Source of the DNA: Thermoguttaceae bacterium
GTDB taxonomy: Bacteria; Planctomycetota; Planctomycetia; Pirellulales; Thermoguttaceae
DNA length: 64,000 nt
Direction: 5' to 3'
Assembly: GCA_040766885.1 (NCBI GenBank)
Contig: JAXGPP010000008.1
Location: 373,659-437,658, forward strand
The first letter of the stretch is position 1; every line of letters begins with the position of its first letter. Below, piece by piece: positions 26,485 to 56,055 of this stretch. A program made the translations under genes and the position numbers. The notes below the pieces were generated by a model, which saw only the letters and a program-made list of their open reading frames with translations, did not search any database and was not told the DNA's origin.

Positions 26485-28615
26485 TGAGACACTGCTGGCC
26501 GATGATCGGCCCGCCGATATTCTCCCGCATCATTGGACGAAACTACTAGGGTCTGACCTGACCGCGGAAATCGTACGGGCGGCGGGCATTCGCTCCGAAA
26601 CGGAGGCCCCGAGGGCTTCCGCCATGCTGGGCGTCCCGCGATTCTCCCCGCGATGCCTGCCGGCGCTAGTGATCCCTTACCGGGATGCGGCCGGGCAGAA
26701 CGGCTATTGTCGGCTTCGCCCTGATCATCCCCGGACCAGCGGCGGGAAGCCCGTCAAGTACGAGAGCCCGCGCGGCCGGCCCAACGAAGTCTACATCCCG
26801 CCGGGCGTGCATCCGGTTCTGCCCGACCCGCAACGCGAGTTGCTTATTACCGAGGGCGAGTTGAAGGCCCTGGCAGCGGTGCGAAATGGTTTCCCGTGCA
26901 TCGGGCTGGTGGGTGTGTTCGGCTGGAAGCCGAAGAAGCGGGAAACGCTACTGGCCGCGCTGGAGCAAATTGCGTGGCGCGGCCGGCTGGTATACATCGT
27001 TTTTGACAATGACGGCGACGGCTTGAAGCCCGAGGTAGCGGACGCGGTAAGCCGGCTGGCCGCGCAGTTGGTGAACCGTGGGGCGGTGGTTCGCGTGGTG
27101 CGACTACCGGCCGGCGAGCCTGGCGCCGACGGCAAACAGACCAAGATGGGCCTGGACGATTTTTTGGTATCGTGCCGAGCCCGCGGTTTGGATCCGGCCG
27201 GCGAATTGCGGGCCCTGCTGGACGCGGCGGAAGACCCCGAGCCGGTGGAGGGCGGGCGGGCAAAGGAACCGGCAAGCAGCTGTGACGCGGTGTTGTCGGC
27301 AAGCGACCTATTGGCCAAGACTACACGGGATGGTGTGCCCAAGCTGCGATTTTGGCGCGGCGACTGGTGGTATTGGCAGGCCGGCGCTTACCGCGAAATG
27401 CCGGCTTCCGAGGTTCGGGGTATTGTGATTGAACATCTGGATAAGTCCTACTACAAAATCACCACCGGGACGACAACCAACGTACTCGATGCGCTGAAGG
27501 CGAAGGCTCGGCTGTCCCATCGCGTTGTGCCCCCGGCATGGATCGGCGGCGATCCGCCCGAGGGTTGGAGGCCGGGGGATGTGCTTGTGGCCAAGAACGG
27601 GGTGATTCACCTACCTACGTTGACGGCCGGCGGGGATGACTACATCCGGTTTGCCACCCCGCGGTTATTCACGACCTGCGCTGTCGATTACGAGTTTCGC
27701 ATCGACGCCCCGGAGCCGGCGGCTTGGCTAGGGTTCCTCGACCAACTATGGGGCCGTGACCCCGAGAGCATAGAAACGCTGCAAGATTGGTTCGGGCTTT
27801 GCTTGACCCCTGATACCAGCTTCCAAAAGGTCTGCCTACTCATTGGCCCCACGCGATGCGGCAAGGGAACTATTAGCCGTGTGCTGCGGGCAATGATTGG
27901 CCCCGAGAACGTATGCGGTCCGACCCTGGCGTCTCTCGGCGGCAACTTCGGGCTTGAGCCCCTGCTGGGCAAATCGTTGGCGGTGATTAGTGACGCACGG
28001 CTGGGACATCGCACGGACCAATCGATTGTCACCGAACGGCTGCTGTCTATTTCGGGCGAGGATGCGCTTACGGTAGACCGCAAAAATCGGGAGTCGGTGA
28101 CCTGCAAACTCGATTCTCGGTTGATGATTCTCAGCAACGAGCTTCCCCGATTGTCCGATGGGAGCGGGGCGCTGGCGGGGCGAATGATCATTCTCCGGTT
28201 TACGGAGAGTTTTTACGGGCGTGAGGATCGGGAGCTAACCGACAAACTGCTTGCCGAGTTGCCCGGCATTTTGTTGTGGGCGATTGCCGGCTGGCAACGA
28301 CTGCGGGAGCGGGACCACTTGATTGAGCCGGCGAGTGCGAGGCAACTGGCCGGCGATCTGGCCGACTTGGCTTCCCCAATTTCAGCTTTCGTGCGGGACC
28401 GCTGCATCGTCTCGCCCGGCTACCGCGTGCCCACCGATGACCTCTATGCAGCGTGGCGGCGGTGGTGCGAGGCTAACGGGCGGCGGGAGCCGGGAACGGT
28501 TCAGACGTTCGGCCGCGATCTGCTGGCAGCGGTACCAGGTTTGGAAGGTACTCGGCCGCGCGACGGCGACGCGCGGTACAGAGCCTATGAGGGCATCGGG
28601 CTGGTGGCTGGATAG
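26474..28615 (+). CDS. Phage/plasmid primase-helicase (P4/D5 family: N-terminal primase-like, C-terminal SF3 NTPase)
   Basis: 713 aa. Acidic DNDGDG motif. Walker A LLIGPTRCGKGTISRV and Walker B MILSNELP. Confidence 0.75.
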   Translation: MANNETLLADDRPADILPHHWTKLLGSDLTAEIVRAAGIRSETEAPRASAMLGVPRFSPRCLPALVIPYRDAAGQNGYCRLRPDHPRTSGGKPVKYESPRGRPNEVYIPPGVHPVLPDPQRELLITEGELKALAAVRNGFPCIGLVGVFGWKPKKRETLLAALEQIAWRGRLVYIVFDNDGDGLKPEVADAVSRLAAQLVNRGAVVRVVRLPAGEPGADGKQTKMGLDDFLVSCRARGLDPAGELRALLDAAEDPEPVEGGRAKEPASSCDAVLSASDLLAKTTRDGVPKLRFWRGDWWYWQAGAYREMPASEVRGIVIEHLDKSYYKITTGTTTNVLDALKAKARLSHRVVPPAWIGGDPPEGWRPGDVLVAKNGVIHLPTLTAGGDDYIRFATPRLFTTCAVDYEFRIDAPEPAAWLGFLDQLWGRDPESIETLQDWFGLCLTPDTSFQKVCLLIGPTRCGKGTISRVLRAMIGPENVCGPTLASLGGNFGLEPLLGKSLAVISDARLGHRTDQSIVTERLLSISGEDALTVDRKNRESVTCKLDSRLMILSNELPRLSDGSGALAGRMIILRFTESFYGREDRELTDKLLAELPGILLWAIAGWQRLRERDHLIEPASARQLAGDLADLASPISAFVRDRCIVSPGYRVPTDDLYAAWRRWCEANGRREPGTVQTFGRDLLAAVPGLEGTRPRDGDARYRAYEGIGLVAG

Positions 28616-28623
28616 GCATTGGT

Positions 28624-28741
28624 CCGCGATGGTCCGCGGACCACTTATCTATATGGCAACTTTGGTAGTAAGAAATAAAATTCCCGCGAACATATGTGTG
28701 TAAAGAGAAGAGTGGACCGCGGACCACTGCGGACCAACTGG
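28624..28741. promoter_or_regulatory. Pair of perfect palindromes TGGTCCGCGGACCA flanking a short AT-rich stretch downstream of the primase; putative operator or origin
   Basis: Sequence: gatggtccgcggaccacttatctatatggcaactttggtagtaagaaataaaattcccgcgaacatatgtgtgtaaagagaagagtggaccgcggaccactgcggacc. Confidence 0.45.
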
Positions 28742-29117
28742 CCGCCCCCGTGGCTGCCTGCCGGTCCGGCAACTGCCCCCGAGCCGGCGAAAATCGAGCC
28801 CGTGGCGGCGGTTTCCGCCCCGATTCTCCCGCCCGCCCCGAGCGATCCGCCCCGGCTATCCCTGCCCATTCCGGCGGCCGGCGGCGGGCGACCTGCCCCG
28901 CAGTGGCCGGCGGCGCTGGCTGACTGGGCGTTGCTTCTCACCCCTGACGATCTCCCCGAGCGGCTCCGGCTGCGTCCGGGAACCGTGGTGATTGACCGGC
29001 GGCGATTCCTGGCATGGCTGCGGGCTGACATCCTCCGGGGACCAGAGGGGCCGCGGGCCATGTACGGGGCGATCCAGTCCGACTTGCGTTGTCTGCGCAA
29101 GGCTTTGATTCCAGACC

Positions 29118-30251
29118 GTGAGGAACCCTATGTTGAATGAACCAGTAATTCAAACCTCGAAAGACGGCCGGCGCATGGTTTCGGTCCTTAACCCGCCCAT
29201 GCGATCGACGGGCCCGAGACAGTACCAGCCCTGGCGGTTTACTGATCTTCAGCCCGGCCGGTGGCGAGTCTACGCAACCTGGCTGCCCGATCCGGCGTAT
29301 GCCACCAATGCGCCGTTTGCGATCATCGACGGCCGCGAGCGCCTTGGCGTGGTCCGGGTCAACCAGCGATTGGCGCCGAGCGATCTTGTCGCCACGGCTG
29401 CCGACGCGGCACCTTGGGCCCTCCTGGGCGCGTTCGACATCTTGAGTGGGACGCTGCAAGTCATCCTGACGACCAGCGAAGCCGATGGCGTGGTCAACGG
29501 CGAGGCTGTCATGATCGCTTACGACGGCCCGATTCTCACGGCAAGCCGCCCTCTCCTGGCTGCCTCCCCGCTCGATAGCCCGGGCACCATTGCGGGCGAG
29601 TGGCAGAAGCTCCCCCCGCCCTGTGAGTTGCGCAACCTCGACGTGAGTTGGCATATCGTGCGGGATCCTTACGACCCTTTGCAGGATCTCGACATCACGA
29701 TCCGCTGTGCGACATGCGGCGAGGATTGCGGGCCGTCCGACAACGCCGAATGCCAGTGCGACGATGGTATCACCCAGCGGCGGTTGCCGAAAAACCTGAC
29801 GCTGACGCTGACCAACAAGCTGTTCTGTAGCCGGCTCGACGGCTCGTATCCAATGACCTACCACACCGACCCCGAGCCGCCGACACCGGGGTCAAGCTTC
29901 TTTGAGTTTTGGGATTCGCCAATCTTCCAATGCCACTTCAACACCGGGTTCTTCTTGCGTCTGTTCTGCGCCGAAGCCGGGGTCCAGAGTTTCATCCTGC
30001 AAGCGATTGTCGCCCCCGGCGCGACGCTTCATACGATGTACTTCGCCAATGAGTGCAACGGGGCATTCACGCAAGACCAGACCAGCGATTCCGCCTGGGC
30101 CTGCGCGGCGAGTACCTGTGACCCCCTGCGAATCGTTTTCCCCGACCTGTTGGAAGAGGGCGTTTCGGGCGGTTTTGCCAACAACTGTTGCCAAGAGGAT
30201 CACGAGGGGGACGACCGAGAGCCTCGTCTAGCCGTGGAGATTACCGAATGA
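29118..30251 (+). CDS. Hypothetical Cys-rich protein (island cargo); no recognisable family
   Basis: 377 aa. Multiple Cys clusters: RCATCGEDCGPSDNAECQCDDG and FANNCCQEDHEGDD. Confidence 0.5.
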   Translation: MRNPMLNEPVIQTSKDGRRMVSVLNPPMRSTGPRQYQPWRFTDLQPGRWRVYATWLPDPAYATNAPFAIIDGRERLGVVRVNQRLAPSDLVATAADAAPWALLGAFDILSGTLQVILTTSEADGVVNGEAVMIAYDGPILTASRPLLAASPLDSPGTIAGEWQKLPPPCELRNLDVSWHIVRDPYDPLQDLDITIRCATCGEDCGPSDNAECQCDDGITQRRLPKNLTLTLTNKLFCSRLDGSYPMTYHTDPEPPTPGSSFFEFWDSPIFQCHFNTGFFLRLFCAEAGVQSFILQAIVAPGATLHTMYFANECNGAFTQDQTSDSAWACAASTCDPLRIVFPDLLEEGVSGGFANNCCQEDHEGDDREPRLAVEITE

Positions 30252-30772
30252 ACATGGGCCGTTGTCGTGATTGTCCGGTTCCACCGGAGGGTGAGCGGTT
30301 TTGGTGCCAGCGACATGGGGTCTGGAAGACCGCGCATCACCGGGAGCTATGCCGCACGAAGCCGAGCTACTTTGCCGCGTGGGAACGCGGCGATGGGCCG
30401 GGGCAGCCCGGCTGGCCGATCCGCCCGAAGTGGGCGTCCATTGGCTGGCCGGAGTTGCTGTACGCCTATCTGCGGCGTGGTGACGAGTGGATCGAATTTC
30501 GGATGGAGTTTCGGGCCGGCTGGTTCAGCGGTGCGGTGGACGCGGCCGGCAAACGGCTGGCCGTCTGGCTGTCCACCGAGGAACCCAAGCTAGTGTACGC
30601 GATTGGCGCCGAGCCGACCGACGATCCTCCCGCCGATGCCCCGACGATCTTGCTACCGCTGGCCGCGGACGGGCAAACGTGGAATCCCGAGGTTTCGTCG
30701 CTCTGGCCGGACCCTCCAATCCTCTGGGCGAGAGACGTTGGCGGATTCGGCGGGGTGATTGCGACGGTCTGA
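30248..30772 (+). CDS. Hypothetical protein (island cargo)
   Basis: 174 aa from MNMGRCRDCPVPPEGERFWCQRHGVW. Overlaps the previous stop codon. Confidence 0.4.
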   Translation: MNMGRCRDCPVPPEGERFWCQRHGVWKTAHHRELCRTKPSYFAAWERGDGPGQPGWPIRPKWASIGWPELLYAYLRRGDEWIEFRMEFRAGWFSGAVDAAGKRLAVWLSTEEPKLVYAIGAEPTDDPPADAPTILLPLAADGQTWNPEVSSLWPDPPILWARDVGGFGGVIATV

Positions 30773-30823
30773 AACGGACGATTCCCCCTGCGGTTGACAA
30801 TTGGACAAGTAACGGATAGGATA

Positions 30824-31045
30824 ATGTCGATGAGCAAAAAACCGCGACTACTCACCGAGCAACTGCGGCAAGCGATCCTCGATGCCGGGGAAACTCGCTA
30901 CGCGATCTGCAAGGCGACGGGTATCGGGCAGGACGTGTTGAGCCGATTTATGAGCGGCGAGCGCGGCCTGTCGAACCGCGTCATGGATCGGCTGGGCGAG
31001 TACCTTAAGTTGGAACTGGTGAGCCGGCGGCAGAAAGGCAGGTGA
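30824..31045 (+). CDS. Small HTH DNA-binding protein (phage regulatory/XRE-like)
   Basis: MSKKPRLLTEQLRQAILDAGETRYAICKATGIGQDVLSRFMSGERGLSNRVMDRLGEYL. Confidence 0.55.
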   Translation: MSMSKKPRLLTEQLRQAILDAGETRYAICKATGIGQDVLSRFMSGERGLSNRVMDRLGEYLKLELVSRRQKGR

Positions 31046-31049
31046 CACG

Positions 31050-32381
31050 ATGGCGAGCATTCTGGGACGCAACGGCCGCCGAAGCGTGCAATTCTACGGG
31101 CCCGACGGCGCCCGCAAGACGCTTTCGCTTGGCAAGGTTTCTCAGCGGCAGGCGGAAACCGTCCGGCTGAAAGTCGAATCCCTCCTGGCGTCGGCAATCA
31201 CGGGCTGCGCTCCAGACCGGGAAACGGCGGCTTGGCTGACCACGCTGGACGACGTGATGACTGACAAACTGGCGAGCGCTGGCTTGATTGCCCGGCGATC
31301 GTCGGCGACCCTGGGGGGCTTCCTTGCCGAGTACCTGACAAGCCGGATCGACGTGAAGCCGGCAACCCGGGAAGTTTGGTCGCAAGTCGAGCGAAACCTC
31401 AAAGAGCATTTCAGCGAAGGCCGGGCGCTGCGGACGATCACTCCCGGCGATGCGGAAGGCTTCCGGTTGTACTTGGTGGCCCAAGGACTAGCCCCGACCA
31501 CGGTTTCCAAGCGGCTGCAATTCGCCCGGCAATTCTTCCGCGCGGCGATGAAACACAAGCTGATCACCGAGAACCCGTTTGCCGAAGTGCGATCGAAGGC
31601 GGCGACGGATTCGGGCCGGCAGCGGTTCATCAGCCGGGACGACACGGCGAAGCTACTGGAAGCCTGCCCGTCCCTGGATTGGCGGCTGATCGTCGCCCTT
31701 GCCCGTTACGGCGGGCTGCGGTGCCCGAGCGAAGTCCTGTCGCTCCGCTGGCAGGACGTGGACGCGGCCCGCGGCCGGCTGACCGTGACGAGCCCCAAAA
31801 CCGAGCATCACCCGGGCAAGGATACGCGGGTCATTCCCCTGTTCCCCGAACTGCGGTCGATCCTCCAGGATGCTTTCGACGCGGCTCCTGACGGATCCGT
31901 GTACGTCGTCAACGAACGGTTCCGGCAATCGTCCCAAGGCAAGGCCGGCTGGAGGAACTGCAACCTCCGCACCAGCTTTGAGAAGATCATCCGGCGGGCC
32001 GGGCTGACCCCCTGGCCCCGGCTGTTCCACAACCTGCGATCCTCCCGCGAAACGGAACTGGTCCAGGCTTATCCCGTCCAGGTGGTCACGGCTTGGCTGG
32101 GCAACACCCCGGCGATCGCTTTGAAACACTACCTCCAGACAACGGATGAGCACTTCGCCCAAGCGTTGTCCGGCAGCGCGCTGCTGCCGGCGCTGCCGTA
32201 CCCGTCCGCAAACGTCACCCCGAGCGGAACATTGCCCGTCGTAACCTGTGGTAAGGCTTCGCAAGAAAACGAAACAACCCCTTGCGAAACAAGGGGTTGT
32301 ACTGAAACTTACGACCGTTTACCAAGCCTTACGAAAATCATCAGCGGAGAGGACAGGATTCGAACCTGCGGACCCCTTTGA
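31050..32381 (+). CDS. int: Tyrosine-type site-specific recombinase / phage integrase
   Basis: 443 aa. The catalytic region has RLIVALARYGGLRCPSEVLSLRWQDV, HNLRSSRETELVQ and AWLGNTPAIALKHYLQ (R..H..R..Y). The 3' end abuts tRNA-Ser. Confidence 0.85.
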   Translation: MASILGRNGRRSVQFYGPDGARKTLSLGKVSQRQAETVRLKVESLLASAITGCAPDRETAAWLTTLDDVMTDKLASAGLIARRSSATLGGFLAEYLTSRIDVKPATREVWSQVERNLKEHFSEGRALRTITPGDAEGFRLYLVAQGLAPTTVSKRLQFARQFFRAAMKHKLITENPFAEVRSKAATDSGRQRFISRDDTAKLLEACPSLDWRLIVALARYGGLRCPSEVLSLRWQDVDAARGRLTVTSPKTEHHPGKDTRVIPLFPELRSILQDAFDAAPDGSVYVVNERFRQSSQGKAGWRNCNLRTSFEKIIRRAGLTPWPRLFHNLRSSRETELVQAYPVQVVTAWLGNTPAIALKHYLQTTDEHFAQALSGSALLPALPYPSANVTPSGTLPVVTCGKASQENETTPCETRGCTETYDRLPSLTKIISGEDRIRTCGPL

Positions 32382-32443
32382 GGAGGTCACGGGTTTAGCA
32401 AACCCGCGCTTTCGACCACTCAGCCACCTCTCCAAGTGCGTGC
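32355..32443 (-). tRNA. tRNA-Ser(GCT), class II; integration target
   Basis: The reverse complement reads GGAGAGGTGGCTGAGTGGTCGAAAGCGCGGGTTTGCTAAACCCGTGACCTCCTCAAAGGGGTCCGCAGGTTCGAATCCTGTCCTCTCCG. Acceptor GGAGAGG/CCTCTCC, anticodon loop TTGCTAA, long variable arm. Confidence 0.8.
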
Positions 32444-33401: not shown

Positions 33402-34979
33402 GTGACGATGTTTTTCAAAGACGGCCAGACAGTGGGGATCGACCTGGGTACGACCTATTCGACGGTGGCTCAGGTGAACGACGATGGGCAACCCGTGGCT
33501 CTGCCCAACGACGATGGCGATGTCGAGACCGCCAGCGTGATCCTGCTGGCCGCCAATGGGCACGTGGTCGTGGGCCCCAACCGCATGCGGGCCGCGATGG
33601 AAGACCCTGAGAATGTGGTCGAACGGGTGAAGCGCTACATGGGCTCGATTGAGTTCCAGCGGACGTTCGACGGCCGCGAGATCACCCCGGAGTTCTTCTC
33701 AGCGCTGATCCTCAAGAAGCTCCGCCAGGACGGGGAGAAGCGGATCGGCACCATCGGCAACGCGGTGATCACCGTGCCCTACTACTTCAACGACGCCCGC
33801 CGCAAGGCCACCCAGGACGCGGGGCGGATCGCCGGCGTCAACGTCGTCGACATCATCAACGAGCCAACCGCGGCCACGTTGACCTACGCCTGGCACAAGG
33901 GAGAGTTGGGCGTGGGGAGCGAAGACAACCCGAAGCGGGTGTTGATTTACGACCTGGGCGGCGGCACGTTCGACGTAACCGTGGTCCAGTACACGCCGAC
34001 CCACTTCCAGGTGCTGGCCACCGATGGCGACGTTCAATTGGGCGGCGTCGATTGGAACGATCGCTTGCTGGACTACGTTGCCGACGAGTTCAAATCCCGG
34101 CACGGCGCCGATCCGCGCGAGTCGGCGCAGACCGTGCAGATGCTCCGTAACGACTGCGATCTGGCCAAGATGGAGCTCACGGAGAAGCCGGAGACCACGA
34201 TCACCTGCCGCCATGGCGGCAGGGCGACCACCGTGAAGATCACCGCCGAACAATTCGAGAACCTCACCGCCGACCTGCTGCAGCGGACGGCGGACACCAC
34301 GCACCTGGTGATCGACCAGGCCGGCCTCAAGCCCCAGCAGCTCGACGCCATTGTGCTCGTCGGCGGCTCGACGCTGATGCCGCCGGTGCGGCGGATGATC
34401 AAGCAGGTGACGGGCATCGAGCCGTACACGGGTCTCTCGCCATACACTTCCGTCGCCCAGGGAGCGGCAATCCACGCCGCGATCCTGGAGGTGAAGCACC
34501 GCGGCGACGCCAGCGGGATGTCGGAGAAAGTCCGCAAACTGCTCGGCAATATCAGGCAGGAGAACGTCAATTCGCACGGCCTGGGAGTGGCGGCGGTGAA
34601 TCCCAAGTCGGGCAAGCTGATCAACCACGTCATGATCCCGCGGAACACGCGGCTTCCCGTGCAGGCCAGCCAGGTGTTCAAGACCACTCGAGACAATCAG
34701 GAGCGCGTCAGCGTGCAGGTCCTGGAGGGAGACGCTCCCGATCCGGCCGCCTGCTCGCTGCTGGGCAAGTGCCGCATCACGGAGTTGCCGGGCGACCTGC
34801 CGCGCGGTTCGTTGATTGAAGTTACCTATGCGTTTGACGCCTCGGGGCGGATTACCGTCAAGGCCCGCGACAAGACGGGCGGCAAAGAAGCACGGATCTC
34901 CATTGAGCGCCGCGGCCGGCTCACCGAGGAGCAGGTCGACGCCTACGGCAAGCTGGCCTCGGAGTACCACGTGGAGTAG
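33402..34979 (+). CDS. Hsp70-family ATPase (DnaK/HscC-like, short form)
   Basis: [22 protein letters not shown] and LVGGSTLMP motifs. 525 aa with a truncated lid. Confidence 0.8.
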
Positions 34980-39909: not shown

Positions 39910-40335
39910 CTACTCAATATCAATAATATCGTCTTCGGACCGATAGGGCGCTGTTCGCGGGACGGCGCGCACGATCAGCTTCGAGGCTACCCGCCGGGCA
40001 ACATAGCGGCGAATGCGCCGACGGATCGCCGGCACCAACAGCAGAAGCGCTGCCGCGTCGGTGATCACTCCGGGAGTGACGAGCAGGACACTCGCCAGCA
40101 ACACCATAACGCCGTCAAACAGCGAATCCGCCGGCAATTCGCCGCGTGTGGTCTCCGCCTTGATCCTCCTCCAACACCGCAGCCCTTCCCGCCGGGCCAA
40201 CCATGCCCCGGTGAACCCGGTACCGATCACGATCACTAGGGGAACCCACCAACTCGTGTTGCCGCCGATCCAGAGCAGCAGGACCAGCTCCAGAAAAGGG
40301 ACGACGGTGAATAATACCAGGAGTCGAAGCAGCAC
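39910..40335 (-). CDS. fxsA: FxsA family membrane protein
   Basis: MLLRLLVLFTVVPFLELVLLLWIG... Confidence 0.7.
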   Translation of the reverse strand: MLLRLLVLFTVVPFLELVLLLWIGGNTSWWVPLVIVIGTGFTGAWLARREGLRCWRRIKAETTRGELPADSLFDGVMVLLASVLLVTPGVITDAAALLLLVPAIRRRIRRYVARRVASKLIVRAVPRTAPYRSEDDIIDIE

Positions 40336-40542
40336 AGGCGCGCCATCGGGGGTTTCCTTATTCTATTCTCCGTTCAGGTGGGGTCAATTGAACGCCAAAT
40401 CGCGTGTATGCGGCGAATGCTGCGGAAACGAGCCCCGACGAGGCGTCCTAGCTGTGTTGACTACCGGCAGCCGGACCATTGCGATTTATGCCCTCAGGAG
40501 CCAGAATGGCAGAGCCGTATTGTTACTGCGGGAGGCGATGCA

Positions 40543-42306
40543 ATGACGACGAGGGCGGAAAGGGCCGATCCCCGGGCGCAAGCACTGCCGAAGTGCCCGA
40601 CAGGCATTCGGGGGTTCGATGAGATTACCGATGGCGGGCTGCCGCGGGGGCGGCCGACACTCGTCTGCGGGGCGGCCGGTTGCGGCAAGACGCTCCTGGC
40701 GATGGAATTCCTGCTCCGCGGCATCCTCGATTATGGCGAGCCGGGAGCCTTTGTCGCCTTCGAGGAAACGGCCGAGGAACTGGCCAGCAACGTTCGCTCG
40801 CTGGGCTTCGACCTCAACGCGCTGGTCGCCCAAGACAAGCTCCTGGTGGATCACGTCCGCGTCGAGCGGAGCGAGATCGAGGAGACGGGCGAATATGACC
40901 TGGAAGGGCTTTTCATCCGACTCGGCCTGGCGATCGACACGGTAGGCGCCAAGCGGATCGTGCTCGACACGTTGGAATCGCTGTTCAGCGGCTTTTCCAA
41001 CACGGCGATCCTGCGGGCCGAACTGCGGCGGCTCTTCCGCTGGCTCAAGGACCGGGGTGTCACGGCGGTCATCACCGGCGAGCGGGGCGACGGCGCCCTG
41101 ACGCGCCACGGGTTGGAAGAATATGTCTCCGATTGTGTGATTCTCCTGGACCATCGCGTCAACGAGAATATCTCCACGCGGCGGCTCCGCGTGGTGAAGT
41201 ACCGCGGGTCCACGCATGGGACGAATGAGTACCCGTTCCTTATCGACGAAGACGGGATTTCGGTAGTTCCGATCACGTCGCTAGGCCTGACGCACGCGGC
41301 TTCCGAAGAGCGAATCCCAACCGGCGTGTCGCGGCTGGACACGATGCTGGGAGGCGAAGGGTTCTACCGGGGAAGCAGTGTCCTGGTCTCCGGCACGGCG
41401 GGCACCGGCAAGACAAGCCTTGGGGCGCACTTCGCCGCCGAGACCTGCCGCCGCGGCGAGCAGTGCCTGTACTTCGCCTTCGAGGAATCGGCCAGCCAGT
41501 TGGTACGGAACATGCGGTCGATCGGGATCGATCTCCAGCCGCATATCGATGCGGGGCGGCTCAGGTTCCATGCCTCCCGGCCGACGCTGCACGGCCTGGA
41601 GATGCACCTGGCGCAGATCCATCGCGAGGTCGAGCGGTACCAACCCCGGGTAGTGGTCATCGATCCGATAACCAATTTCACCTCGGCCGGCAGCACGCGG
41701 GAAGTGAACTCGATGCTGCTGCGGATCATCGACTTTTTCAAGGCCCGGCAGATCACCGCGATGTTCACCAGCTTGATGGCGGGGGGCGAGGCGATCGAGA
41801 GCACCGAGGTGGGCGTCTCGAGCCTGATGGATACCTGGCTGCTGCTCAAGATGCTGGAAACCAACGGCGAGCGGAACCGCGTTCTGTACGTGCTCAAGTC
41901 GCGGGGCATGTCGCATTCCCGCCAGGTTCGCGAGTTCTTGCTGACCGAACGAGGCATCGAACTGGTCGACGTGTACACCGGCCCGGAGGGCGTGCTCACC
42001 GGATCGGCACGGCTGGCGCAGGAGACCCGCGGCCGCCTGGCAGAGCAACAAGAGTGCGAGGAGATGGAGCGGCGGAGACGCGAACTGAGTCGCAAGAGAC
42101 AGGTGATCGAGTCGCAGATTGCCGATATGCAGGCTGAGCTCGAGGCCCAGGAAGAGGAGTTTGCCCAGGCGGAGGCAGAGCGTCAGGCGCACCGCAAACA
42201 GAAGGAGGCTGGTCGCCAGGCGATGGCGGCGTTTCGCCAAGCGGATGGCGGCAACGGTGATGCGAGCGCTGATCGTGGCACGAAAGAAGAGGTGATCAAT
42301 GAGTGA
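40543..42306 (+). CDS. kaiC: KaiC (double RecA-like domain) with a C-terminal coiled-coil extension
   Basis: RBS GGGAGG 8 nt before the ATG at 40543. Two Walker A motifs, [14 protein letters not shown] and [14 protein letters not shown]. The last ~80 aa are [43 protein letters not shown]. Confidence 0.85.
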
Positions 42307-42640
42307 CTCGACACGCACCGCACCGTTCGAAGAGCTGGGAGGACCGGCAGTCCTGGGCCAGGAGCACTGGGACTTGCGGCTCTATGTGGCGGGTCAGACG
42401 CCCAAGTGCGTCACGGCCTTCATGAACCTGAAGCGGATCTGCGAGGAGCACCTGGCAGGCCGCTACCATATCGAGGTCGTCGACCTGCTGGAGCATCCGC
42501 AATTGGCGCGAGGCGATCAGATCCTGGCCGTGCCCACGCTGGTTCGCAAGTTGCCCGAGCCGGTGCGGAAGATTATCGGCGACTTATCCAATGCGGAGCG
42601 CGCGCTGGTCGGCCTCGATCTCCGCCCCCACCGTGCATGA
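42299..42640 (+). CDS. kaiB: KaiB (thioredoxin-like)
   Basis: [57 protein letters not shown]. Confidence 0.8.
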
Positions 42641-42653
42641 AAGAAGGCGGTTT

Positions 42654-43049
42654 ATGACCGACGAGCCGAGCACCGATTCCGACGAGCATAGCCGCAAACC
42701 ACTCGATAAGAGTTGCGACTTCGAAGCGATCCTGGCCCACCGCGATGGCGACCGCTACCGGTTGCGGTTGTTCGTCACGGGGATGACCGCACGGTCGATC
42801 CGGGCGATTTCCAACCTCAAGGCGATCTGCGAGGAGTGGCTCCCCGGCCGCTATGACCTGGAAGTGCTCGACATCCATCAGCACCCCGAGATGGCCCGCG
42901 AGCAGGACGTTATCGCGGCGCCGACGCTGGTCAAGGAATTACCGCCGCCGCTGCGGCGGCTGATCGGCGACCTGTCGGACAGCGAGCGGGTGCTCGCCGG
43001 GTTGGGGCTGGAGAAGATACCCGGTTCGCATCCGACGGATGAGGCATGA
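42654..43049 (+). CDS. kaiB: KaiB paralogue
   Basis: LRLFVTGMTARSIRAISNLKAICEEWLPGRYDLEVLDIHQHPEMAREQDVIAAPTLV. Confidence 0.75.
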   Translation: MTDEPSTDSDEHSRKPLDKSCDFEAILAHRDGDRYRLRLFVTGMTARSIRAISNLKAICEEWLPGRYDLEVLDIHQHPEMAREQDVIAAPTLVKELPPPLRRLIGDLSDSERVLAGLGLEKIPGSHPTDEA

Positions 43050-45487
43050 CGAACGAGGCCACCACCAACGCGAGCCTTCAGCGCGAGCTCGACGACGTCC
43101 GGCAGCGGTTGGTCGAGGCGGAAGAGCTGATTGCGGCGATCCGCGCCGGCGCGGTGGACGGGTTAGTCGTGGATGGCCCGGCCGGTGACCAGGTCTTTCT
43201 GCTTCACGACGCCGACCGGCCGTACCGTGTGTTCGTCGAGGAAATGCAGCAAGGCGCGCTCACGCTGAGCGCCGAGGGGACGATTTATCACTGCAACCGC
43301 CGGATGGCCGAGATTCTGCGGCTGCCGGTGGAACGCCTTCGCGGCCGCACATTGGCCGAGTTTGCTGCATCCGGCAAGCGCAACGAACTCCAGGCCCTGC
43401 TCAAAAAGGCGGGCAGCGGCCGTTACCAGGCCGAGCTTGTGCTGGCGGCCGACGATGGGGGGGAGGTGCCGGCTTACGTGACGGCCAACCCGCTTCCCGG
43501 TGGCGAGGCGGCCATCTGCCTGGTGGTGACTGACTTGACCGAACAGAAGCGCCACGAACAACTCGTGGACAGCGAGGCCTTGACGCGGTCGGTACTTGAG
43601 CAGGCGGTAGACCCGATGATCGTCTGCGACCGCACGGGCACGATCATCCGGGCCAACGAAGCGGCGCGGCAGTTGTGCGGTGCGAACCCACTTTGGCAGC
43701 CCTTTCACGCCGCGTTTGCGCTCGAAGAGGCGGTTGGAGGCTGCGAAACCGGCGAGCGCCCAGGCAAGCCAGTTTCGCTGGCGCCGCTCTACCAGGGCCA
43801 AACGGTCGCCGGGTGCGAAGTCTGCCTGAAGGGCCCGGTCCAGAACCGCGACCTTCTGCTGAATGCCGCGCCTCTGCACCGCGGCGATTCGGGCACGATC
43901 GAAGGTTTCGTAATCTCGCTCGTCGATGTGACCCCGCTACGGGCGGCGCAGCGTGCGGTCGCCGCCTCTCAGCGCGAGGTGCAAGAGATACTGACCAGCA
44001 TCACCGATGCGTTCTTTGCGCTCGATCGCCAATGGCGGTTCCAGGAAATCAATCCGGCCGCTGAGAGAGTATTCGGCAAGCCGCGCCAGGAACTGCTGGG
44101 CGCGGTGTTCTGGGAGCTGTTTCCGTCGGCGGTCGGTAGCGAGTTCTACCGGCAGTACCATCGTGCGATGGCCGAGCAGCGGACAGTGCATTTCGAGGCG
44201 GTTTCGAAAATCGCGCCGGGCTGCTGGTACGAGGCCCACGCCTATCCCAATCCGGAGCGGCTTACGGTCTACCTTCGCGACGTCACCGATCGCAAGCGGG
44301 CCGAAGAGGAACTTCGCGCCCTTAACGAAGACCTGGAGCGGCGGGTCGCCGAGCGGACCGCGCTGGCCGAGCGGCGGTCGGAGCAACTGCGTGCCCTGGC
44401 GGCCGAACTGACGCAGGCCGAGCAGCGCGAGCGCCGCCGCCTGGCACAAGTGCTCCACGACCACCTCCAGCAATTGCTCGTGGCGGCGAGGATGAAAATG
44501 GGCTCGCTGGCGCGCCGCATCACCGAGCCCAAGCTCCAGGCGTCGCTCGGCCAGATCGATCACCTGGTGGGCCAGTGCCTCACTGAATCCCGATCGCTGA
44601 CCGTTGAACTCTGCCCCCCCGTGCTCTACGACGGCGGCCTGGTGGCCGCCGTGGAATGGCTCGCCCGGAGGATGGAGGAACAGCATTCGCTGCGCGTCGA
44701 CGTGCGGGCATGCGATGACGTGGAGCCGCTCGACGAGACCATCCGCCTGCTGCTGTTTCAAGGGGCGCGCGAGCTGCTATTCAACGTGGTGAAGCATGCC
44801 AAGGCCGAACGGGCGGAAATCGAGCTGCAATGCGATGGGCCGGACTCGGTATGCCTGACCATTCGTGACCGCGGTGTCGGATTTGACTCCGCCAAGATCG
44901 ACGGCCAGGGGGCCAATCGCGGCTTTGGGCTGTTCAGCATCCGCGAACGGGTCGAACTGCTGGGTGGAAGGATGGAGGTCGAGACCGTTGCGGGCCAGGG
45001 GACGCAAGTCCGCCTGGTCGTCATGCGCCAGACCCCGGCGGCCGCCGCTCTCACCGCCGCCGACGATACACCAGCAATGAAACGCCGCACGACGAAGCCC
45101 AAACCCACCGAAGGCACGCGGCGGATCCGCGTGCTTCTGGCCGATGATCACGAGATCCTCCGCGACGGTCTGGCGGGCGTGTTGCAGGAAGAGCCGGATC
45201 TCGAGCTGGTCGGCGAGGCGGCCGATGGCCAGGAAGCCGTGGAACTCGCTTTAATCACCCAACCCGATGTCGTGCTAATGGACATTACCATGCCGCGGGT
45301 CAACGGCATCGAGGCCACGCGCATGATTACGGCTCGTCATGCGGAAGTGCGCGTCATTGGTCTTTCCATGCACGACGATCCCAGTCTCACCGAGAGGATG
45401 TACGAGGCGGGGGCCGTGGCCTATATCAGCAAGAGCGGTCCGACCACGGAACTGATCAAAGTAATCCGCAGCCTGGGACCCGCATGA
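43046..45487 (+). CDS. PAS-domain hybrid sensor histidine kinase (HisKA_3 / HATPase_c) with a C-terminal NarL-type receiver
   Basis: 813 aa with multiple PAS repeats. H-box LHDHLQQLLVAARMKM. ATPase DRGVGFD ... GFGLFSIRERVELLGG. Receiver IRVLLADDHEILRDGL ... VVLMDITMP. Confidence 0.8.
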   Translation: MTNEATTNASLQRELDDVRQRLVEAEELIAAIRAGAVDGLVVDGPAGDQVFLLHDADRPYRVFVEEMQQGALTLSAEGTIYHCNRRMAEILRLPVERLRGRTLAEFAASGKRNELQALLKKAGSGRYQAELVLAADDGGEVPAYVTANPLPGGEAAICLVVTDLTEQKRHEQLVDSEALTRSVLEQAVDPMIVCDRTGTIIRANEAARQLCGANPLWQPFHAAFALEEAVGGCETGERPGKPVSLAPLYQGQTVAGCEVCLKGPVQNRDLLLNAAPLHRGDSGTIEGFVISLVDVTPLRAAQRAVAASQREVQEILTSITDAFFALDRQWRFQEINPAAERVFGKPRQELLGAVFWELFPSAVGSEFYRQYHRAMAEQRTVHFEAVSKIAPGCWYEAHAYPNPERLTVYLRDVTDRKRAEEELRALNEDLERRVAERTALAERRSEQLRALAAELTQAEQRERRRLAQVLHDHLQQLLVAARMKMGSLARRITEPKLQASLGQIDHLVGQCLTESRSLTVELCPPVLYDGGLVAAVEWLARRMEEQHSLRVDVRACDDVEPLDETIRLLLFQGARELLFNVVKHAKAERAEIELQCDGPDSVCLTIRDRGVGFDSAKIDGQGANRGFGLFSIRERVELLGGRMEVETVAGQGTQVRLVVMRQTPAAAALTAADDTPAMKRRTTKPKPTEGTRRIRVLLADDHEILRDGLAGVLQEEPDLELVGEAADGQEAVELALITQPDVVLMDITMPRVNGIEATRMITARHAEVRVIGLSMHDDPSLTERMYEAGAVAYISKSGPTTELIKVIRSLGPA

Positions 45488-46089
45488 TTTCCGATTCGGC
45501 GCGCTTCGATGCGGCGATCGCTGCTTTCGACTCCGCCAATGCCGGCGATCGCAACCACGTGCGCTATCACGGCCAGGAATTTCCGGAGCAGTTGTTCTAC
45601 GGCCAGCGGATGACGTGGTGGCTGGAGCACCTGGAGTCGGACCCTTCGGAGGCGTTGCGGCTGGCGGCGCGGTCGCAACACATCCGGCGATGGGAAATAC
45701 CCCGCGACAGCTATCCTCGCGATCGCCAGGGCTATCACCGCTGGCGGCAGCGGCTCTATGAGTTCCACGCGGAAACAGCCGGCGAGATCCTGCGGCGCGT
45801 CGGCTACGACGAGCCGATCGTGGCCCGCGTGCAGGAGCTGCTGCGCAAGAAGGGGCTCAAGACCGATCCGGAGATGCAGATTCTGGAGGACGTGATCTGT
45901 CTCGTCTTCCTGGAGCACTACCTGGCCGGCTTCTCCCAACAGCACGATCGCGCGACCTTGCTGCGCATCCTCCGCAAGACGTGGGGCAAGATGTCGGCCC
46001 GGGGGCGTGACGCGGCCAGGCACCTCGAGCTGCCGGACGCGGCCCGCCAGCTGGTTGCCGAGGCGGTGGAAGACGCGGAGGAGCGGTGA
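45484..46089 (+). CDS. DUF4202-family protein
   Basis: 201 aa, MISDSARFDAAIAAFDSANAGD ... WWLEHLESDPSEALRLAARSQHIRRWEIPR. Confidence 0.5.
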   Translation: MISDSARFDAAIAAFDSANAGDRNHVRYHGQEFPEQLFYGQRMTWWLEHLESDPSEALRLAARSQHIRRWEIPRDSYPRDRQGYHRWRQRLYEFHAETAGEILRRVGYDEPIVARVQELLRKKGLKTDPEMQILEDVICLVFLEHYLAGFSQQHDRATLLRILRKTWGKMSARGRDAARHLELPDAARQLVAEAVEDAEER

Positions 46090-51013: not shown

Positions 51014-51375
51014 GGCAAACCTGACACCATCCCCCAGGGCGGCCCTACCAGGGGCGTCCGCCGCCCAATTAAGCTATCCAGTATAGTTTTCCAACTCGGT
51101 TGTCACAACCGGCCCACAGAATAACCGCCCGGCAGGTTTAAAGTCAACGCCACTAATGGCTTACATTCGTCCCATCATTCAAGCTCGATCGCTGCCAGAA
51201 TGGCAGTCCTGGATTAAGGGGGGTTCGCCTGCGAGTGCCTAAATTCTTTCGCCCATGCAGGTTACCGCTTCACCTCAAGACGGTATGTGCTTTGCATAAA
51301 GCTGCCGTGTGGCCTAGCGGCCGATGAAGTCCCGGCTTCTGCCGATGTTTCTTCGCACGAAGGAGGATCTGCGCA

Positions 51376-51815
51376 TGGTACCGCGTACCCCTGGCTTCCG
51401 ACATCCGCTCCAAGACTTTCGGCGCGAAATGGACCGCTTGATGTCCGACGTCCTCCAGGCCGCTTCGGAAAGCGGTTGGCCGTTTCCCGCCCGCAATCAG
51501 CCGGCCGTCAACATGTGGGAGACGGCGGATTCCCTGCATCTCGAGGTCGAGGTGCCGGGCATCAAGGCCGACCAACTGGATATTTCGGTCGTCGGCAACG
51601 AGGTCACACTCCGCATCGCGCGGGTCGATACGGCGGATGAGAATGTGACCTATCACCGCCGCGAGCGGCCGGTGGGAGAGTTCTCGCGGATCTTGCGGCT
51701 GCCGACGGAGGTGGACGCCGATCACATCTCGGCCGAACTTCGCAACGGGGTGCTTACCGTAACGCTTCCCAAAGCTCAGGCCGCGCGGCCGCGCAAGATT
51801 CAGGTTAGTGGTTAG
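51376..51815 (+). CDS. Hsp20/alpha-crystallin family small heat-shock protein
   Basis: RBS GAAGGAGG 10 nt upstream of the ATG at 51376. ACD signature VNMWETADSLHLEVEVPGIKADQLDISVVGNEVTLRIA ... GVLTVTLPKA. Confidence 0.75.
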
Positions 51816-51870
51816 CGATCCGTTCGGTAGGGTTCATTCCATAAACTGACTTGCCACACGAGGTCCATCC

Positions 51871-52272
51871 ATGGCTGACGAAACCCCCATCACCAAACCA
51901 GAGGCCCCTGAAGCACAAGGGGCGGAATACACCCGAGGCGGGAACATCTACCGTCCCAATGTCGACATCGTGGAACGCGAGGATGAATTGCTGGTTCTGG
52001 CCGACATTCCCGGCACGGCCGGCGATCTGATCGATATCGATTTCGAGGACGGCGACCTGACGATCCATGCCCGCGTTCCCCCGCGGCAGCAGTCGGGGGC
52101 CGAGTACCTGTTGCGGGAGTATGGTGTCGGCGACTATCTCCGCACGTTCCGCGTGAGCGAGAAGATCGACGCCACCAGGATCAGTGCCGAATATGGCGAT
52201 GGCGTATTGACGCTGCACCTGCCCAAGGCCGAGGCATTGCGGCCGAGAAAAATTTCCGTACGAGCCGAGTAG
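51871..52272 (+). CDS. Hsp20 family protein
   Basis: PNVDIVEREDELLVLADIPGTAGDLIDIDFEDGDLTIHA ... GVLTLHLPKA. Confidence 0.8.
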   Translation: MADETPITKPEAPEAQGAEYTRGGNIYRPNVDIVEREDELLVLADIPGTAGDLIDIDFEDGDLTIHARVPPRQQSGAEYLLREYGVGDYLRTFRVSEKIDATRISAEYGDGVLTLHLPKAEALRPRKISVRAE

Positions 52273-53765: not shown

Positions 53766-54461
53766 ATGACCACGCTCACCGTCCTGTTTCTCGTCTGTGC
53801 CGCACTAGGCGGCACCATCCTGGTGTGCCAGTTCGTTCTCACGGCAATCGGCTTGGGAGGCGATCTGGAAGTGCACGACGGCGGGGGCGGCGACATGCTC
53901 CATGGCGACATGGGAGGTCACGGCGGCGCGGATTTCTCTGGCCATACCGATGTCGACGGCTCCGGGCTGCACCCCGATGGCGGCGCGGCCTATGAAGCGC
54001 ACGCCAATGCCACCAGCCACGCCTCCAGCCATTTGCTGGGGATGATCTCGTTTCGCACCGTGGTCGCGGCGCTGGCCTTCTTCGGCATCGGCGGCTTGGC
54101 CTCGCAAGGCGCGGGACTGTCAGCTCCCTGGACTGTAGTGATTGCAGTGACCGCCGGCTTCGGCGCGATGTACGGTGTTTACTGGGTGATGCGAAGCCTG
54201 TGGCTCTTGCAGGCCGAAGGCACGGCTCGCGTGCAGGGGGCAGTGGGGAAGCTGGGCGCCGTCTACCTTCGCGTGCCAGGTTACAACCAGGGCAGCGGGA
54301 AGATCCAGATCAATCTGCAGAATCGGACTATGGAGTACACCGCGGTCACGGCGGGCGACGCGATCCCCACGGGAGCTAAAGTTGTCGTAGTCGACGTGGT
54401 TTCACCCGATACGGTCGAAGTTGAGCCGGCCTTGGAGCCGGAAAGGATCGAAAATGCTTAG
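53766..54461 (+). CDS. NfeD-like membrane protein (flotillin partner)
   Basis: N-terminal TM helices and Gly-rich linker. The C-terminal beta-barrel reads GAVGKLGAVYLRVPGYNQGSGKIQINLQNRTMEYTAVTAGDAIPTGAKVVVVDV. Directly upstream of the flotillin gene. Confidence 0.6.
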   Translation: MTTLTVLFLVCAALGGTILVCQFVLTAIGLGGDLEVHDGGGGDMLHGDMGGHGGADFSGHTDVDGSGLHPDGGAAYEAHANATSHASSHLLGMISFRTVVAALAFFGIGGLASQGAGLSAPWTVVIAVTAGFGAMYGVYWVMRSLWLLQAEGTARVQGAVGKLGAVYLRVPGYNQGSGKIQINLQNRTMEYTAVTAGDAIPTGAKVVVVDVVSPDTVEVEPALEPERIENA

Positions 54462-56055
54462 TCCCCTCTTCGCACAAGAGCTTGAGCTTGGCGGTGCCGT
54501 CATGTGGATCGTGGTCGGCGTGATCCTGGTGGCGATGATGACCGTCACCGTCTTCGGCCTGATCAGCCGGCAGTATAAACGTTGCCCGAGCAACCGCATC
54601 CTGGTGATCTATGGTCGGTCCGGGCGTGGCGAAGCGGCCACGTGTGTGCACGGCGGCGCGAGGCTGGTGATCCCGTTGCTGCAAGACTACGGCTGGTTGA
54701 GCCTGGAGCCGATGCAGATCGAGATCCCGCTCCGCGGCGCGCTGTCGATGGAGAACATCCGCGTCAACGTGCCGAGCGTGTTCACCGTGGCCATCGGCAC
54801 CACGCCCGAGTTGATGCAGAATGCGGCCATCCGCCTCTTGGGCCTGGGCAACCAGGAGATCAAGAAGCAGGCCGAGGACATCATCTTCGGCCAGTTGCGC
54901 CAAGTGATTGCCTCGATGCTCATCGAGGACATCAACCGCGACCGCGACAAGTTCCTGGAAGCGATCCAGAGTTCGCTCGAGCCTGAATTGAAGAAGATTG
55001 GCCTGGTGCTGATCAACGTCAATATCACCGACATTACCGACGAGTCGGGCTACATCGAAGCCATCGGCCAGAAAGCCGCTTCGCAGGCTATCCAGAAGGC
55101 CCGCGGCGACGTGGCCGACAACGAGAAGATGGGCGAGATTCGCGTCGCCGAAGCCGAACGCGAGAAGGCCGTGCAGGTGGCGGGCAATACCAAGATTAAA
55201 GCGGTCGGCGTTCGCGAGGCAGCCCGCGATCAGGCGATTTCGATCGCCACCATGGACAAAGAGCAGCAGGTCGGCGAGCAGCGGGCCGCGTTCGAACGCG
55301 AGGCGTCGGTGAAGGACGCCGAACGCGAGATGCGGATCAAGCTGGCCGAGGCCAACGCCCGCGCGGTCGAAGGCGAAAACACGTCCAAGGCGGCCATCGC
55401 CGCCTCGCAAGCGGAACTTCAGGTCAAGCAGGCCGAAGCCTACCAGGTCGGCGAGACCCGGCAGCGCGTGGCGCAGGCCGCCGTGCTTGAAGCCCAGCAC
55501 CGCGCCATGGCCAAGGCGGCACTGGCCGAAGCCGAGGAGATCGAGGCCAAGCGGCGCGCGGAACTGGAAGCCCCGGCCAAGGCCGAGAAGGCCCGCGTGA
55601 TCGTCGATGCCGAGGCCGTCGCCGAGCGCCGGCGACTGGAGGCCGAAGGCGAGGCGAAGGCGATCTTCGCCAAACTGGAAGCCGAGGCCCGCGGCCAGTA
55701 CGAGATCCTCGCCAGGAAGGGCGAAGGTCTGCGGCAAATCATCGACGCCTGCGGCGGCGCCGAGGAAGCGTTCAAGATGCTTATGCTCGAACACTTCGAT
55801 AACCTGGTCGAGGCCTCGGCCAAGGCGATCTCGAACATCAAGTTCGATAAGGTGGTCGTGTGGGAAGGCAATGGCCAGAACGGGACCACCGCCACGGCCA
55901 ACTGGCTGCACAACATGGCCCGCACCCTGCCTCCAATGATGCAGGTGATGAAGGACATCGGCGGTGTGGAGATTCCTGAGACGCTGGCCAACTTGGCCGG
56001 CGTCCAAAAGGAAGGGGCGGCGGTGAGCGACCACATTTCGCCCGACGGCAAGTAA
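54454..56055 (+). CDS. Flotillin (SPFH/Band-7 family)
   Basis: An N-terminal TM helix, an SPFH domain, and a long Ala/Glu-rich coiled-coil (EAxxEAE repeats). Confidence 0.8.
   Translation: MLSPLFAQELELGGAVMWIVVGVILVAMMTVTVFGLISRQYKRCPSNRILVIYGRSGRGEAATCVHGGARLVIPLLQDYGWLSLEPMQIEIPLRGALSMENIRVNVPSVFTVAIGTTPELMQNAAIRLLGLGNQEIKKQAEDIIFGQLRQVIASMLIEDINRDRDKFLEAIQSSLEPELKKIGLVLINVNITDITDESGYIEAIGQKAASQAIQKARGDVADNEKMGEIRVAEAEREKAVQVAGNTKIKAVGVREAARDQAISIATMDKEQQVGEQRAAFEREASVKDAEREMRIKLAEANARAVEGENTSKAAIAASQAELQVKQAEAYQVGETRQRVAQAAVLEAQHRAMAKAALAEAEEIEAKRRAELEAPAKAEKARVIVDAEAVAERRRLEAEGEAKAIFAKLEAEARGQYEILARKGEGLRQIIDACGGAEEAFKMLMLEHFDNLVEASAKAISNIKFDKVVVWEGNGQNGTTATANWLHNMARTLPPMMQVMKDIGGVEIPETLANLAGVQKEGAAVSDHISPDGK

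Follow-up and report, generated by a model that had tools for sequence, protein, structure and literature searches.

A probable KaiA-independent, KaiC2-type KaiBC timer operon with a second KaiB of a separate clade in a Thermoguttaceae bacterium

We analysed a kai gene cluster in a 64,000-nucleotide stretch of DNA from a Thermoguttaceae bacterium (assembly GCA_040766885.1, contig JAXGPP010000008.1, positions 373,659 to 437,658 of the forward strand; this whole stretch is called the window below, and all coordinates are those of the window), and found five plus-strand open reading frames (ORFs) lying head to tail from 40543 to 46089: kaiC, two kaiB genes (kaiB-a and kaiB-b), a sensor kinase gene and a DUF4202 gene. 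From gene content, residue conservation, homology and conserved gene order, we consider it probable (roughly 0.8) that the locus encodes a KaiC2-type KaiBC timer that works without KaiA, in the manner of an hourglass, and that a dedicated PAS sensor kinase is transcribed with it. Taken by itself the locus is unremarkable: KaiA-free KaiC/KaiB hourglass operons form a family that is widespread and has been described before, and the operon of kaiC, kaiB and PAS histidine kinase has been published for Rhodopseudomonas palustris and Rhodobacter (Cereibacter) sphaeroides (PMC4794148). To this family, the structure and mechanism of which were reported in 2023, the window contributes a further example, probably from a planctomycete. 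What is new beyond the papers we could search is an old, separate clade of second KaiBs, the FE motif that its members frequently carry, and a constant N-terminal module of the sensor; we found no treatment of any of the three in the searchable literature, and one could exist elsewhere. The original prediction for this DNA, made from its letters alone, had the ORF coordinates and domain calls right and overlooked only the fifth gene. The genes of the operon are:

40543-42306, plus strand: kaiC, 587 amino acids (aa), KaiC2 type, with CI at aa 18-244, CII at aa 258-486 and a tail at aa 487-587
42299-42640, plus strand: kaiB-a, 113 aa, B1 clade by Pfam KaiB, clade hidden Markov model (HMM) and tree
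42654-43049, plus strand: kaiB-b, 131 aa, B2 clade (second-position KaiB) by Pfam KaiB and clade HMM
43046-45487, plus strand: hybrid sensor histidine kinase, 813 aa, by Pfam, motif positions and NCBIfam NarL/UhpB-type similarities
45484-46089, plus strand: DUF4202 gene, 201 aa, Pfam PF13875 at E 1e-72

KaiC contains two Pfam KaiC domains (PF06745 twice, E 4e-113); it passed the general NCBIfam KaiC model NF006799 with 756 bits (cutoff 408) and failed the cyanobacterial KaiC equivalog TIGR02655 (357 bits, cutoff 546). Its closest solved structures are those of R. sphaeroides KaiC (KaiC-RS; 8DBA, 8FWI and 8DB3, E 3e-215 to 3e-207), with residues 13-565 of the query, tail included, aligned to full-length 8DBA at E 3e-215, and it is 60% identical to KaiC-RS and 37% identical to Synechococcus elongatus KaiC. 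An S. elongatus KaiC reference identical to PDB 1U9I over all 519 residues was aligned with the window KaiC and KaiC-RS, and this alignment gave the following correspondences:

Walker A of CI: window K49/T50, S. elongatus K52/T53
Catalytic Glu-Glu of CI: window E74/E75, S. elongatus E77/E78
Asp of CI: window D142, S. elongatus D145
Walker A of CII: window K290/T291, S. elongatus K294/T295
Catalytic Glu-Glu of CII: window E314/E315, S. elongatus E318/E319
Asp of CII: window D374, S. elongatus D378
Thr: window T421, S. elongatus T426
Phosphosite pair: window S426/S427, S. elongatus S431/T432

Both Glu-Glu pairs and S426/S427 are invariant in an alignment of 20 KaiC homologues, and S426/S427 align with the KaiC-RS pair that the phosphomimetic structure 8FWI carries as Glu-Glu. 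A Ser-Ser phosphosite pair is a signature of KaiC2 (PMC10076222; PMC4794148). These scores and residues identify the window protein as a genuine KaiC of the KaiC2 type, not the cyanobacterial KaiC1 type, and the double-domain KaiC with both Walker A motifs that had been proposed is borne out by the two PF06745 domains and by the retained K49/T50 and K290/T291. There is next to no chance that the protein is instead a RadA/Sms- or RecA-like repair ATPase paralogue, with the adjoining KaiB-like genes encoding thioredoxin-fold proteins that stand there by coincidence. Weak Pfam and NCBIfam side matches to RecA, DnaB_C and RadA at the CII P-loop region point in that direction, but the NCBIfam RadA model (sms) gives the window KaiC 69 bits against a cutoff of 403, far from its score with NF006799, and the double-domain architecture, both Glu-Glu pairs, the Ser-Ser phosphosite with T421 and the match at E 3e-215 to a solved KaiC all argue against it. 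The original prediction had allowed for a RadA-like protein in which the phosphosites or Glu-Glu residues were missing; all of these residues are kept, and residue mapping together with the family scores rules out a RadA/Sms-like paralogue.

Related loci were collected by scanning one genome per GTDB species with the 20-sequence KaiC alignment, which found 593 relatives, and the best 80 loci (59-72% identity) were analysed by searching their ORFs with the window proteins; kaiB genes were counted in the 77 of them in which the sequence continues for 900 bp or more beyond kaiC. The 80 loci span Planctomycetota, Acidobacteriota, Bacteroidota, Verrucomicrobiota, several proteobacterial classes, Nitrospira, Chloroflexota, Gemmatimonadota and two archaea. 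In 79 of them kaiC is followed by kaiB, the exception having only 43 bp of downstream sequence, and this gene order is a further argument against a repair ATPase beside chance neighbours. Two tandem kaiB genes occur in 43 of the 77 loci and one kaiB in the other 34, and a same-strand homologue of the window kinase comes directly next in 75. Among the closest species-level relatives sampled, most KaiC2 operons encode two KaiBs, which belong to distinct, old clades, whereas the sole biochemically studied system has one. Cultured examples of the two-KaiB form include Mucilaginibacter, Spirosoma, Dyadobacter and Flavihumibacter, and a Pararhizobium qamdonense plasmid (PLSDB) carries it under the RefSeq names kaiC, kaiB, 'KaiB family protein' and 'response regulator'. 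Two KaiBs are present in each of the loci most closely related to that of the window (L081, L085 and L086), and the nearest homologues of KaiB-b and of the sensor are named Thermoguttaceae. Dating the two-KaiB state by the KaiC tree was dropped, because the neighbour-joining tree is star-like and poorly resolved, with two-KaiB loci widely spread and one-KaiB loci clustered in a few groups. Two further arrangements were seen in the survey: a metagenomic contig carries three tandem kaiB genes between kaiC and the sensor (L089, 3917-4993), and in a deltaproteobacterial locus two kaiC-kaiB clusters, both complete, adjoin one another (L049, 4300-9015).

The C-terminal tail makes the window KaiC 68 aa longer than S. 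elongatus KaiC, and its first 80 residues (aa 487-566) include 16 Glu, 12 Gln, 13 Arg and 14 Ala. An AlphaFold2 monomer model built from the shallow 20-sequence alignment (mean predicted local distance difference test score, pLDDT, 66.5; 64-87 in the tail-helix block) gave a single continuous helix over aa 487-567 and disorder over aa 568-587, so that the tail divides into two predicted parts:

42001-42243 (aa 487-567), plus strand: KaiC tail helix, aligned to 8DBA chain residues 476-554 and modelled by AlphaFold2
42244-42303 (aa 568-587), plus strand: disordered end of KaiC in the AlphaFold2 model

This extension had been called atypical, a description that does not hold. The alignment to 8DBA spans the tail; the 120 best database homologues, from more than 8000 proteins matching at E < 1e-50, are all 566-629 aa long; and the length after the G..GxLTG motif is 100 aa here, compared with a median of 94 in 72 related KaiCs and 78 in KaiC-RS. 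A C-terminal tail about 50 aa longer marks a large kaiC clade, KaiC2 (PMC10076222), and by these comparisons the long tail is a known hallmark of that family. In the R. sphaeroides KaiC crystal structure the tails form a 12-helix coiled-coil bundle that links two hexamers and keeps the A-loop exposed, leading to KaiA-independent autophosphorylation (PMC10076222).

Both KaiBs exceed the Pfam KaiB cutoff of 27 bits (94.1 bits for KaiB-a, 82.6 bits for KaiB-b) and are 50% identical to one another over the core domain, in agreement with the two divergent KaiB paralogues of the original prediction. They fall below the cutoffs of NCBIfam NF006798 (101 bits for KaiB-a and 88 bits for KaiB-b; cutoff 110) and TIGR02654 (96 and 88 bits; cutoff 145), which is consistent with the RefSeq name 'KaiB family protein'. 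The best PDB match of both is the R. sphaeroides KaiB, KaiB-RS, in 8FWJ chain M (E 2e-29 for KaiB-a, 2e-28 for KaiB-b). In a neighbour-joining tree of 127 KaiB domains, first-position KaiBs all cluster with single KaiBs and KaiB-RS (B1), and second-position KaiBs (B2), with the exception of that from locus L019, fall outside this group and mostly occupy separate, longer branches. Within B1 the mean identity is 70%, within B2 it is 55% and between the two 49%, and diagnostic columns distinguish them (e.g. LRLYVAG in B1 versus LRLYVTG in B2, IEV versus LEV, and TLVRK versus TLVKK). HMMs built for each clade score KaiB-a at 166 bits for B1 versus 119 for B2 and KaiB-b at 135 bits for B2 versus 116 for B1, assign KaiB-RS to B1, and, among the 120 best database matches to KaiB-b, 112 are B2-type. 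We conclude from tree and profiles that KaiB-a is an orthologue of the single KaiB of R. sphaeroides and that KaiB-b belongs to an old, separate second KaiB clade.

Short N-terminal motifs track, by their distribution across these sequences, which paralogue a KaiB is. An xFE..(A/L) motif lies upstream of strand beta-1 in 24 of the 43 B2 proteins; in 21 of those 24 its Phe precedes beta-1 by exactly 14 residues (shuffles: mean 3.3, maximum 9). The motif occurs in only 1 of 45 first-position KaiBs from two-KaiB loci; the B2 proteins of Bacteroidota are without it. Single KaiBs instead carry (S/T)LxE(I/L/V) about 16 residues before beta-1 in 17 of 34 cases (shuffles: mean 0.4). First-position KaiBs of two-KaiB operons as a rule have neither motif, the PFEEL of the window KaiB-a being exceptional. 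The two window motifs are:

42717-42734, plus strand: DFEAIL of KaiB-b (aa 22-27), with F 14 residues before beta-1, the canonical distance
42323-42337, plus strand: PFEEL of KaiB-a (aa 9-13), at the distance typical of the single-KaiB motif

F23 and E24 of KaiB-b are at least 90% conserved in a B2 alignment built around the window protein, and a low-confidence AlphaFold2 model places a short helix at the FE motif.

As judged from sequence, KaiB-b is most likely a second KaiC- or sensor-binding regulator, possibly acting through this N-terminal FE helix. A tandem duplicate that is recent, redundant or in decay, and that has no role of its own, is a very unlikely account of the second kaiB. In its favour, KaiB-b evolves faster, with a dN/dS against L081 of 0.47 compared with 0.06 for KaiB-a (a single, noisy pair), B2 proteins are less alike than B1 proteins, and a second kaiB is missing from 34 of the 77 loci. 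However, KaiB-b is still constrained, with dN/dS below 1, and second-position KaiBs from Planctomycetota, Bacteroidota, Acidobacteriota, Verrucomicrobiota, Proteobacteria, Nitrospira and archaea group apart from first and single KaiBs (L019 excepted), share diagnostic residues while keeping the KaiB core motifs, and carry the FE motif at a fixed distance from beta-1 far more often than first-position KaiBs do; the predominance of B2-type proteins among the best matches to KaiB-b points the same way. A more elaborate scheme, which we put forward as unlikely, would make KaiB-b the third working part of many KaiC2 timers. In it the FE helix would dock on the sensor N-module or on KaiC, with one KaiB setting the KaiC phosphorylation state while the other relays that state to the kinase; or KaiB-b would antagonise KaiB-a and give a delay that a simple hourglass is without. 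The related SLxEI motif, often at the same position in single KaiBs, hints that two jobs of an ancestral protein were split between the paralogues. As many as four copies of KaiB, their role not known, have been noted in some bacteria (PMC10808063), and our literature searches for tandem kaiB genes in non-cyanobacterial operons found nothing specific.

The fourth gene matches its earlier description as an 813-aa multi-PAS HisKA_3 kinase with its own receiver: an N-terminal coiled coil with PAS (aa 1-175) is followed by two more PAS regions, HisKA_3 (aa 462-526, with H471 in HDHLQQ), HATPase_c (aa 569-659) and a receiver (aa 696-807). This NarL-type receiver is intact, keeping the acidic pocket and phospho-acceptor context (LADDH at 698-702 with DD at 700-701, VLMDITMP at 743-750, S774 and K796). 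Downstream sensors of the surveyed loci vary in output, with HisKA in 38 of 69 complete genes, HisKA_3 in 17, HisKA_2/HWE in a few, GGDEF-EAL in one and HD in one, and a receiver in 24; despite these varied output domains, their first ~175 residues can be aligned in all 69. By this alignment, what characterises the partner sensor is a conserved module at its N-terminus, not the type of kinase:

43046-43570, plus strand: Kai-linked N-module, LRxRLxEAEE..AIRxGxVDxLVV, PYR, then a PAS fold, found by profile search

A profile of this N-module matched 76 genes directly after kaiB at 61-262 bits in the 80 loci and the window. Other PAS proteins in flanks of about 1 Mb scored 21-73 bits and missed the coiled-coil part, apart from two exceptions that lie inside kai clusters. 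The R. sphaeroides KD131 HWE kinase carries the module (97.6 bits), and when 4 of 24 database homologues of the N-module were looked up in reverse, all 4 stood directly after kaiC-kaiB, kaiC-kaiB-kaiB or, in L089, three kaiB genes. Against solved structures the N-module gave a generic PAS match alone (3MFX, E 9e-4). It is the conserved linkage to kai genes, and this linkage only, that makes the N-module a good candidate for the region of the sensor that faces the Kai proteins. For work on primordial clocks the survey is of some use in that the KaiB motifs and the sensor module give concrete constructs to test.

The junctions between the five genes are tight: kaiC and kaiB-a overlap by 8 nt, with the kaiB-a ATG inside the end of kaiC, kaiB-b starts after a gap of 13 nt from the kaiB-a stop, and ATGA overlaps join kaiB-b to the kinase and the kinase to the DUF4202 gene. 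These overlaps and near-contacts indicate one operon whose genes are translationally coupled. A GGGAGG Shine-Dalgarno sequence stands 8 nt before the kaiC ATG at 40543, and NCBI records hold products of 587, 131 and 813 aa from the 437,658-bp contig, so independent gene calls agree with the ORF starts used here. Upstream of kaiC lies the following region:

40336-40542, plus strand: intergenic region with the presumed promoter and 5' untranslated region, between divergent fxsA (39910-40335, minus strand) and kaiC

A consensus scan of this promoter region found no sigma-70-like site upstream of kaiC on the plus strand, and scans of the operon found no convincing terminator and no Rfam RNA family. 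The upstream neighbours fxsA and nadA run opposite to the kai operon; 3' of it are ORFs that could not be annotated and fatty-acid synthesis genes. Measured against L081, the nearest relative, all five genes are under purifying selection (dN/dS 0.06-0.47, with 0.35 for the DUF4202 gene). We rejected DUF4202 as a conserved Kai component: it is found in none of the 80 species-level kai loci and is absent from the close relative L086, and only L081 shares it, at the same operon position (L081 4628-5233) and with the same ATGA coupling. The DUF4202 gene is a lineage-specific addition to the operon, a passenger.

Of the named Kai systems, that of R. sphaeroides KD131 (KaiC-RS; PDB 8DBA, 8FWI, 8FWJ) is the closest. 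The two share 60% KaiC identity including the C-terminal helix, the Ser-Ser phosphosite, the lack of an adjacent kaiA, and the order kaiC, kaiB, sensor kinase, with the same coiled-coil/PAS module at the N-terminus of the kinase. They differ in that R. sphaeroides has one KaiB of 89 aa without an N-terminal extension, while the window adds a second KaiB of the separate clade; in the kinase, which in the window is an 813-aa protein with HisKA_3, a fused receiver and three PAS regions and in R. sphaeroides a 478-aa HWE kinase; in the appended DUF4202 gene; in the tail after G..GxLTG, 22 aa longer in the window; and in location, the KD131 locus being on plasmid pRSKD131A and the window locus on the 437,658-bp contig. 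The proto-circadian timer of R. palustris (Ma et al. 2016, PMC4794148), compared by its published description, likewise has kaiC, kaiB and a PAS histidine kinase under the control of a single promoter, TSS-type phosphosites and an extended KaiC C-terminus; it lacks KaiA, and it has one KaiB where the window has two. With the KaiABC system of S. elongatus PCC 7942 the window shares the double-domain KaiC, the positions of the Walker, Glu-Glu and phosphosite residues and the KaiB family; in contrast, S. elongatus KaiC has a Ser-Thr phosphosite, and the window protein, at 37% identity and with a tail 68 aa longer, failed TIGR02655. The gene order is kaiB-kaiC in S. elongatus, with kaiA in addition, and kaiC-kaiB here. 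The window kinase also lacks the features of the SasA and CikA types: its N-terminus is a coiled coil with PAS, gives no KaiB domain match and so is without the KaiB-like N-domain of SasA, and it has no GAF domain and a receiver that keeps the phospho-acceptor Asp, unlike the pseudo-receiver of CikA. The kaiBC genes of Legionella pneumophila (KaiB Lpp1115, PDB 4KUN) are KaiA-less, as the window is among its scanned ORFs, and belong to a non-phototroph, and their KaiB is a far more distant match (E 1e-13 to KaiB-a, 2e-16 to KaiB-b) than the R. sphaeroides proteins.

The R. sphaeroides KaiBC system is an hourglass timer driven by the ATP:ADP ratio (Pitsawong 2023, PMC10076222), and the mechanism we propose for the window locus is drawn from homology to KaiC-RS. 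The C-terminal helix of KaiC, about 80 residues long, would pair with the tails of a second hexamer to form a dodecamer, which would keep the A-loop in its exposed state. At high ATP, KaiC would autophosphorylate on S426/S427 without KaiA, and the B1-type KaiB-a would bind the CI ring of phosphorylated KaiC and favour dephosphorylation as the ATP:ADP ratio drops, so that phosphorylation would behave as an hourglass, following the energy or day-night state of the cell and not free-running. The N-terminal coiled-coil/PAS module of the sensor most likely communicates with the Kai complex, and the HisKA_3 core and fused NarL-type receiver may pass this state on or feed a signal in. No KaiA domain was found among the 45 window ORFs scanned with Pfam, within which scope the original prediction stands: a KaiC/KaiB module outside the cyanobacteria, accompanied by a PAS kinase and without a kaiA close by.

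Several points weigh against this reading. The host is probably a non-phototrophic planctomycete, for which no day-night role readily suggests itself. In the model system a single KaiB occurs with an HWE kinase, where the window has two KaiBs and a HisKA_3-receiver hybrid, and the circuit may therefore behave differently. Heptad a/d enrichment over aa 487-566 of KaiC, in its best register, is not above shuffles (p 0.30), a heptad-like a/d pattern being confined to aa 508-549; we dropped heptad periodicity as an independent proof of a coiled coil, and the putative coiled coil of the tail is proposed instead from homology to 8DBA and the predicted 81-residue helix. The AlphaFold2 model of KaiB-b, built from a B2-only alignment, has a mean pLDDT of 57.8, at which its fold preference is not readable. 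Finally, any function given here to this organism's Kai proteins comes from sequence and models.

A response system for stress or energy state, in place of a day-night timer, is a tenable though less favoured account of the physiological role: through its phosphorylation KaiC would signal ATP:ADP or redox stress, with the PAS kinase activating a protective regulon, comparable to the L. pneumophila kai operon. The probably non-phototrophic host fits this account, a multi-PAS sensor suggests ligand or redox input, and the Legionella KaiB, detectably related to both window KaiBs, comes from a system that is reported to act in stress response, with the KaiB crystallised in a fold-switched form (PMC10808063). 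Heat-shock genes nearby (Hsp70-like at 33402-34979 and two adjacent Hsp20 at 51324-52272) are weak circumstantial support. However, no characterised stress-only KaiC comes nearly as close to the window KaiC as KaiC-RS does, and at the molecular level there is no rivalry: since the R. sphaeroides hourglass is itself driven by ATP:ADP (PMC10076222), the timing and stress readings share one molecular mechanism, and sequence does not separate the two physiological roles. An hourglass timer of the R. sphaeroides kind remains the reading we prefer.

Outside the operon, the window holds several other features. An array of 28 tRNA genes called by ARAGORN (22 by Rfam) occupies about 4.7 kb of the plus strand at 2756-7495, covers most amino acids and has duplicates for Lys, Gly, Gln, Glu, Leu, Thr and Arg. 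Its GC content of 0.60-0.62 is slightly below that of the neighbouring DNA, and an HNH endonuclease ORF (6252-6908) lies within it between tRNA-His and tRNA-Trp; the unit is possibly of mobile origin. Just 3' of the array, an ORF with TROVE and Ro60-vWA domains (8080-9723, plus strand) resembles bacterial Ro60/Rsr, and no Y-RNA-like family was found near it with Rfam at the gathering threshold. The region from about 21000 to 32433 is probably an integrated mobile element: a tyrosine integrase (31050-32381) abuts an opposite-strand tRNA gene (32345-32433), and the element includes a DUF3854/DUF5906 primase-like protein (26474-28615) and a run of ORFs without a Pfam match. A match to the Acido-Lenti-1 small RNA family (RF01687, 42 bits, gathering score 37) was found at 21159-21205 on the minus strand. 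An SPFH/Band 7 gene at 54421-56055 joins the Hsp70-like and Hsp20 genes as stress-type neighbours that flank the kai operon on both sides, at distances of up to about 10 kb, which may be coincidence.

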